This document shows, in pieces, positions 582 to 967 of a DNA stretch of 967 nt. The number at the start of each line of letters is the position of its first letter. The stretch's first letter is position 1. The position numbers and the translations under genes are program-made. The notes beneath the pieces were generated by a model, which was not told where the DNA came from, did no database searches, and saw nothing but the letters and a program-made list of their open reading frames with translations. This DNA is from Escherichia coli (GTDB lineage: Bacteria > Pseudomonadota > Gammaproteobacteria > Enterobacterales > Enterobacteriaceae): assembly GCF_003334385.1 (NCBI RefSeq), contig NZ_QOWN01000140.1. One strand, 5' to 3'.

Positions 582-967
582 ACAGAGTAACCGCGATTAT
601 CTCCGCTCTGGTTATCTGCATCATCGTCTGCCTGTCATGGGCTGTTAATCATTACCGTGATAACGCCATTACCTACAAAGCCCAGCGCGACAAAAATGCC
701 AGAGAACTGAAGCTGGCGAACGCGGCAATTACTGACATGCAGATGCGTCAGCGTGATGTTGCTGCGCTCGATGCAAAATACACGAAGGAGTTAGCTGATG
801 CGAAAGCTGAAAATGATGCTCTGCGTGATGATGTTGCCGCTGGTCGTCGTCGGTTGCACATCAAAGCAGTCTGTCAGTCAGTGCGTGAAGCCACCACCGC
901 CTCCGGCGTGGATAATGCAGCCTCCCCCCGACTGGCAGACACCGCTGAACGGGATTATTTCACCCTC
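578..967 (+). CDS. Rz: i-spanin Rz (inner-membrane spanin subunit), 3' end truncated by the window edge
   Basis: ATG at 578..580 overlaps the R stop (ATGA). Frame 2 is open to the end of the window and translates to [130 protein letters not shown]. It has an N-terminal transmembrane segment (residues ~4-24, type II topology), then a charged helical, coiled-coil-like periplasmic region, and a Cys at residue 99 matching the lambda Rz periplasmic cysteine. It is absent from the ORF track, presumably because no stop codon falls inside the window. Confidence 0.92.
784..790 (+). promoter_or_regulatory. Shine-Dalgarno sequence for Rz1, embedded within the Rz coding sequence
   Basis: GAAGGAG is a near-consensus SD, 7 nt upstream of the Rz1 ATG (798). 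The same bases encode K-E in the Rz frame. Confidence 0.65.
798..967 (+). CDS. Rz1: o-spanin Rz1 (outer-membrane lipoprotein spanin subunit), embedded in the +1 frame of Rz; 3' end truncated by the window edge
   Basis: ATG at 798..800 is preceded by a strong Shine-Dalgarno GAAGGAG (784..790) with a 7-nt spacer. Frame 3 translates to [56 protein letters not shown]. This is a signal peptide with a lipobox V-V-G-C (Cys20 at 855..857) followed by a proline-rich mature region, diagnostic of Rz1. The gene lies wholly inside Rz in a different frame, the classic embedded spanin architecture. Confidence 0.9.
846..857 (+). other. Rz1 lipobox (V-V-G-C), signal peptidase II site with Cys20 as the lipidated residue
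   Basis: The Rz1 signal peptide [19 protein letters not shown] ends in VVG followed by Cys, fitting the lipobox consensus [LVI][ASTVI][GAS]C. The +2 residue is Thr, not Asp, consistent with outer-membrane sorting. Confidence 0.75.

Follow-up and report, generated by a model that had tools for sequence, protein, structure and literature searches.

We are confident that base 802 of the window (the whole 967-nucleotide stretch of Escherichia coli DNA analyzed here) is an ordinary and common G/T polymorphism in the Rz/Rz1 genes of lambdoid phages and prophages, likely near-neutral in effect. The base, on the + strand, is both the third base of Rz codon 75 and the middle base of Rz1 codon 2 (positions 801 to 803). 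With the G present in the window, Rz residue 75 is Ala (GCG) and Rz1 residue 2 is Arg (CGA); with the T present in phage lambda, Rz residue 75 is still Ala (GCT) and Rz1 residue 2 is Leu (CTA).

All features of the window lie on the + strand. It opens with the 3′ end of S, an EssD/S21-type gene for a class II holin, or pinholin (positions 1 to 84), of which translation gives the last 27 codons; the stop codon follows at positions 82 to 84. A complete open reading frame for a SAR endolysin R of the RrrD/R21 type follows (positions 84 to 581, 165 amino acids), and then Rz, the inner-membrane spanin subunit (positions 578 to 967), which is cut by the end of the window after the first 130 of its 153 codons. 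The stop codon of S and the ATG of R share one base (TAATG), and the stop codon of R overlaps the start of Rz as ATGA. Rz1, the outer-membrane lipoprotein spanin subunit, is embedded in the +1 frame of Rz (positions 798 to 967, the first 56 of 60 codons). Its ATG (positions 798 to 800) sits 220 bases into Rz (220 mod 3 = 1), and a Shine-Dalgarno sequence, AAGGAG (positions 785 to 790), lies 7 bases 5′ of that ATG; phages 21 and 434 have a ribosome-binding site annotated at the equivalent position. The Rz and Rz1 frames are both open up to the end of the window. In an identical locus of E. coli SCU-104 (referred to here as L005), Rz has its full 153 codons and Rz1 terminates within Rz. Reading the sequence with the boundaries reported for lambda Rz1 (PMC5295617), we assigned Rz1 codons 1 to 19 (positions 798 to 854) to the signal sequence and codons 17 to 20 to a lipobox, V-V-G-C, with the Cys20 codon at positions 855 to 857.

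Judged by sequence-level criteria, all of which agree, the window is a phage-21-type lysis cassette, with a class II pinholin and a SAR endolysin. The full-length holin from L005 matches the PHROG holin families phrog_9876 and phrog_20. R matches the endolysin family phrog_7 (E = 4.5e-69) and is identical at 164 of 165 residues to the R protein of phage 21, which is annotated as a SAR endolysin; SAR behavior is predicted here. By the same kind of criteria, Rz and Rz1 are an embedded spanin pair. Rz matches the Rz-like spanin family phrog_13 over residues 1 to 153 (E = 1.2e-79), and it has the attributes of an Rz i-spanin, namely, a hydrophobic stretch near the N-terminus and a gene placed directly after that of the endolysin. 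Rz1 matches the Rz-like spanin family phrog_3198 (E = 3.7e-30) and Pfam PF06085 (E = 3.7e-20), with residues 20 to 59 aligned to positions 1 to 40 of the 41 in the model; the Pfam Rz1 model spans the mature part only, which is these same residues 20 to 59. The attributes of an Rz1 lipoprotein are also present in its sequence (the lipobox, Cys20, C29, and the proline-rich segment P32 to P36), and cleavage and lipidation are predicted. Among NCBIfam profiles, there was no match for S, Rz, or Rz1, and R had only sub-threshold lysozyme matches. Neither frame of this putative spanin pair is interrupted, and both match their counterparts in phages 21 and lambda, which form plaques, exactly or almost exactly.

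We compared the window's 390 Rz bases with lambda (NC_001416) without gaps and found three differences, at positions 582, 589, and 802. At position 582, lambda has G and the window has A, which changes Rz residue 2 from Ser to Asn, as the initial annotation of the window had noted (lambda Rz begins MSRV); the difference at position 589 (C in lambda, A in the window) is synonymous. The difference at position 802 (T in lambda, G in the window) changes the Rz codon from GCT to GCG, keeping Ala, and the Rz1 codon from CTA to CGA, replacing Leu with Arg, and it is the sole difference between lambda and the window in the 170 overlap bases inside the window. The initial annotation had given the lambda Rz1 start as MLKLKMM and had described the G/T difference as silent in Rz and Leu/Arg in Rz1; translation of Rz1 from NC_001416 bears out that sequence, and the effect in each frame is as described. 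It had also considered that lambda and phage 21 might both carry Arg at Rz1 residue 2, which is the case for phage 21 (Arg) but not for lambda (Leu). A difference that it had noted in the tail of S, KIKEDKRK in the window versus KIREDRRK, holds as well, with KIREDRRK belonging to the S21 protein of phage 21 and not to lambda S.

We counted the alleles at position 802 in GenBank phages and in complete E. coli genomes with exact 51-mers, per record (best place) rather than per prophage. The G 51-mer was found in 45 phage records and the T 51-mer in 31. Nearly all of the 31 T records come from lambda or from phages derived from it in the laboratory; they comprise lambda, the lambda imm21, imm434, and h434 hybrids, DE3, DN1, O276, HK629, HK630, and a few others. 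Among complete E. coli genome records, 3609 have the G 51-mer versus 170 with the T 51-mer; these records cannot be taken as independent samples, given how widespread DLP12-like prophages are, and the expansion of a small number of successful prophages, DLP12-like elements for instance, could explain part of the G majority. We also scanned IMG/VR with a 32-mer around the site, leaving base 802 free and requiring the 31 flanking bases to be exact. Among the matches listed (at least 120 contigs), the base is G in 115 and T in 5, and never A or C. Within these listed matches, G is combined with Rz N-terminal haplotypes whose identity to the window is as low as 61% and with either of two very dissimilar Rz1 bodies, one of which is MMLFGASLIMVVGC. 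The start MRKLKMM is common to the Rz1 proteins of phage 21, 434, 2G7b, and the K-12 DLP12 gene rzoD, and G/Arg is also found in phage 434B and in E. coli SCU-104. Arg is thus the majority allele, and the Leu of lambda is the minority form. The initial annotation had treated Arg as an addition in the window, a view that does not survive the presence of this majority allele in phage 21, 434, 2G7b, and DLP12 RzoD.

Among more distant relatives, the Rz1 genes of cdtI, phi467, and JLK-2012 start with ATG CGA (Arg), and those of SfI and 4C10 start with ATG CTA (Leu), with an N-terminus that is otherwise different (MLTRLSK). We considered Arg as the ancestral state and rejected this, although G backgrounds are diverse within the MxKLKMM group; because SfI and 4C10 start with ATG CTA, we claim only that Arg is the majority allele and make no claim of polarity. 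As a separate observation, the GenBank record MW057783.1, named Campylobacter phage CJLB-4 (48,361 bases), has the exact lambda-allele 51-mer at positions 46080 to 46130, with "endopeptidase Rz" annotated. The coordinate is lambda-like, and the record is more suggestive of lambda, or of contamination by lambda, than of a phage of Campylobacter.

The asymmetry between the two frames at position 802 follows from the +1 register, in which position 3 of an Rz codon is position 2 of an Rz1 codon, position 1 of Rz is position 3 of Rz1, and position 2 of Rz is position 1 of Rz1. With the full gene from L005, we enumerated all 549 single-base changes that are possible over the 183 bases of overlap. 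Both proteins are changed by 52% of the 549 possible substitutions, Rz1 alone is changed by 137 (25%), Rz alone is changed by 21.5%, and 1.5% are silent in both frames. At the third positions of Rz codons, 135 of the 183 possible changes are silent in Rz and alter Rz1. For a lone base difference such as that at position 802, the background is the 137 of 549 (25%). The idea of an overlap in which one frame varies and the other is silent, as the initial annotation had proposed, therefore stands as a description (Rz silent, Rz1 changed) but not as a special event, since the register itself gives 135 of 183; its interpretation is partly supported overall. In 58 lambda-type natural sequences, we found 30 variant sites in the overlap, of which 10 (including 802) are silent in Rz and change Rz1, 11 are the reverse, 7 change both proteins, and 2 change neither.

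Conservation within the window is highest in the overlap. Compared with 434, and likewise compared with DLP12, the window has 1 difference in the 170 overlap bases, 12 in the 220 upstream Rz bases, and 15 in R. This conservation fits a double constraint. Cahill et al. (G3 2016/2017) reported that mutation-sensitive parts of Rz or Rz1 face silent parts of the other gene, and that missense mutations in lambda Rz are concentrated at residues 61 to 87, the distal half of coiled-coil 1 (PMC5295617). Rz codon 75 falls in this sensitive stretch, and the part of Rz1 that faces it is the n-region of the signal peptide.

In lambda Rz1, residues 1 to 19 are the signal sequence and Cys20 is the lipoylated first mature residue (PMC5295617). 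Residue 2 is therefore lost with the signal sequence, and mature Rz1, 40 residues starting at Cys20, does not differ between the alleles. What differs in the precursor, as read from the sequence, is the charge of the n-region, which is +3 with Arg (R2, K3, and K5) and +2 with Leu. A near-saturating screen of lambda Rz1 yielded, in the block containing the signal sequence, only M1K, M12R, G19C, and changes at C20 as lysis-defective missense mutations (PMC5295617). None of the lysis-defective mutations from that screen was at codon 2, a result that concerns total loss of lysis, which the screen targeted, and is silent on small quantitative effects (PMC5295617). We propose that the polymorphism would arise in the following way. 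Selection would keep Ala75 in Rz, leaving only the third base of codon 75 free, and this wobble base would drift. Any wobble change there necessarily alters Rz1 residue 2, which lies in the positively charged n-region, where an exchange of Arg and Leu would be tolerated. We infer that the Arg/Leu change is probably neutral or nearly so, with both signal peptides equal in function; a modest effect of residue 2 on the synthesis or export of Rz1 may nevertheless exist.

We regard an adaptive role for the exchange as quite unlikely. The charge of the n-region and the identity of the second codon can influence export and translation, and this general effect, together with the one additional positive charge that Arg gives the n-region, would allow residue 2 to tune the amount or export of Rz1 and thereby match the supply of spanin to the type of cassette. 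Residue 2 would then be a selected tuning knob for expression or export of the embedded o-spanin that leaves Rz and mature Rz1 untouched, and phages would use the one class of mutation open to them in the overlap to adjust the stoichiometry of the spanins; our confidence that residue 2 is such a knob is equally low. The distribution of the alleles across endolysin types offers this proposal one point, in that three of the five T alleles among the listed IMG/VR matches lie behind a lambda-type R, but it tells against it as a whole. Among those same listed matches, the endolysin gene ahead of a G allele is lambda-type in 39 cases, phage-21-type in 52, and of another kind in 10; for T, the corresponding numbers are 3, 1, and 1. 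With G and T each found behind all three kinds of endolysin, the allele is not tied to cassette type, and we rejected a link between the two. An effect of base 802 through mRNA structure at the Rz1 start was rejected too. In three windows around positions 785 to 803, neither the folded mRNA structure nor its energy depended on whether base 802 was G, T, A, or C, and the predicted accessibility of positions 785 to 803 was the same for all four bases (0.47 to 0.49). This equality of predicted structure between the alleles, and the fact that no lysis-defective mutant is reported at codon 2 (PMC5295617), both argue against adaptation.

We give far less credence to explanations in which one of the two alleles is an artifact. 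Leu in lambda might be a mutation acquired in the laboratory by the reference stock, with Arg as the sole natural form. Such an origin would account for most of the 31 T phage records, which are lambda, hybrids, DE3, and similar laboratory material, and for the laboratory strains J53 and BLR(DE3) among the T-bearing E. coli records. It does not account for T in HK629, HK630, and other isolates, in E. coli from humans and cattle, and in at least five IMG/VR contigs with varied Rz N-termini, nor for the divergent Rz1 genes of SfI and 4C10, which start with ATG CTA. The natural T isolates largely refute a laboratory origin, which we consider very improbable. Less probable still is that G at position 802 is a sequencing or assembly error. 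This is already refuted, since the exact G 51-mer recurs in 3609 genome records of E. coli as well as in 45 of phages, and the whole window is 100% identical to a finished E. coli chromosome. An ordinary G/T polymorphism, with both alleles natural, remains by far the most probable account.

Two other kinds of variation were seen in the overlap. Base 898, which belongs to Rz codon 107 and Rz1 codon 34, is C in the window and G in 434 and DLP12. The change from C to G is silent in Rz (Thr, ACG/ACC) and replaces Pro34 of Rz1 with Arg within P32 to P36, so that residue 34 of DLP12 RzoD is Arg, not Pro, inside the five-proline stretch. The P34R variant is present in 6 of the 58 lambda-type sequences. 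In lambda Rz1, changes at P32, P33, P35, and P36 are reported to be lysis-defective (PMC5295617). The second kind of variation is a mosaic junction at about position 822 (822 to 825). In many phages, among them PhiR70_1, Ayreon, Kati, JLK-2012, and 2B8, the match to the window ends at this junction; past it, they carry a different C-terminal half of Rz and a different Rz1 body (MRKLKMML, then FGASLIMVVGCSSKENAL). The junction is recurrent and comes immediately past the n-region that these Rz1 signal peptides share. Among the listed IMG/VR matches, the alternative Rz1 body is present in 59 of the 112 contigs with a complete Rz.

The difference at position 802 is already known, since both alleles are in annotated reference genomes: public records annotate lambda Rz1 (YP_001551744) with Leu, and the o-spanins of phages 21 and 434 and K-12 rzoD (b4510) with Arg. 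The partition of constraint between the Rz and Rz1 frames has likewise been described experimentally (PMC5295617). The site itself is of very little importance. It is, however, a tidy illustration of how a +1 overlap turns every wobble change in the outer gene into an amino acid change in the inner one, and of how these can persist at sites where the embedded protein tolerates them, in this case within a cleaved signal peptide. Because lambda, the usual reference, has the minority allele, a sequence that differs from lambda should not for that reason be called unusual.

A lambdoid prophage on the chromosome of E. coli SCU-104 is 100% identical to the window over its whole length. The gene order in this prophage is quuD, a porin gene, essD, rrrD, rzpD, iss (bor-like), nohD, and terminase, and the locus is annotated with DLP12 gene names. 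Its porin gene (positions 4198 to 5280 of L005) is annotated as ompC and separates quuD from the lysis cassette, in the relative position that nmpC occupies upstream of essD in DLP12. The iss gene (positions 7071 to 7364 of L005), which encodes a bor-like serum-survival lipoprotein, lies just after Rz on the opposite strand. The best phage records, 2G7b, ev207, ev243, and PhiR11_1, are 99.3% identical to the window, and phages 21 and 434 are about 97% identical.

Phage 21 (OL657228.1, with an i-spanin and an o-spanin annotated) has the gene order and overlapping start/stop junctions of the window. Its Rz1 is identical over 56 codons, including Arg2, with no differences in the 170 overlap bases. 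The R proteins differ at 1 of 165 residues (M98T), and the 390 Rz bases differ at 3, all nonsynonymous and upstream of the overlap (T45K, V50A, and I54M). The S segments (positions 1 to 83) differ at 18 of 83 bases; the S21 tail of phage 21 ends in KIREDRRKAARGE, whereas the S tail of the window is that of DLP12 EssD and of 434 S. In K-12, the DLP12 genes essD-rrrD-rzpD/rzoD form the same cassette with the same S tail, and RzoD starts with MRKLKMM. DLP12 has 28 base differences from the window overall, and its RrrD differs from the window's R at 1 of 165 residues (V159I). The Rz start codon is ATG in the window, lambda, and phage 21 and GTG in 434 and DLP12 rzpD; several Rz variants among the listed IMG/VR matches also use GTG or TTG. 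Relative to named phages, the window is a patchwork, in that its S tail is the one found in 434 and DLP12, R residue 98 matches 434 and DLP12 and residue 159 matches phage 21, and Rz codon 2 (Asn) is as in phage 21 and Rz codons 45 to 54 are as in lambda.

The S and R genes of lambda did not align to the window, and lambda R has no recognizable sequence in common with the window's R; only Rz/Rz1 matched. In that region, lambda shares with the window both the embedded +1 architecture and the Shine-Dalgarno sequence, its Rz1 is identical to that of the window except at residue 2 over the codons present, and its mature Rz1 is identical.
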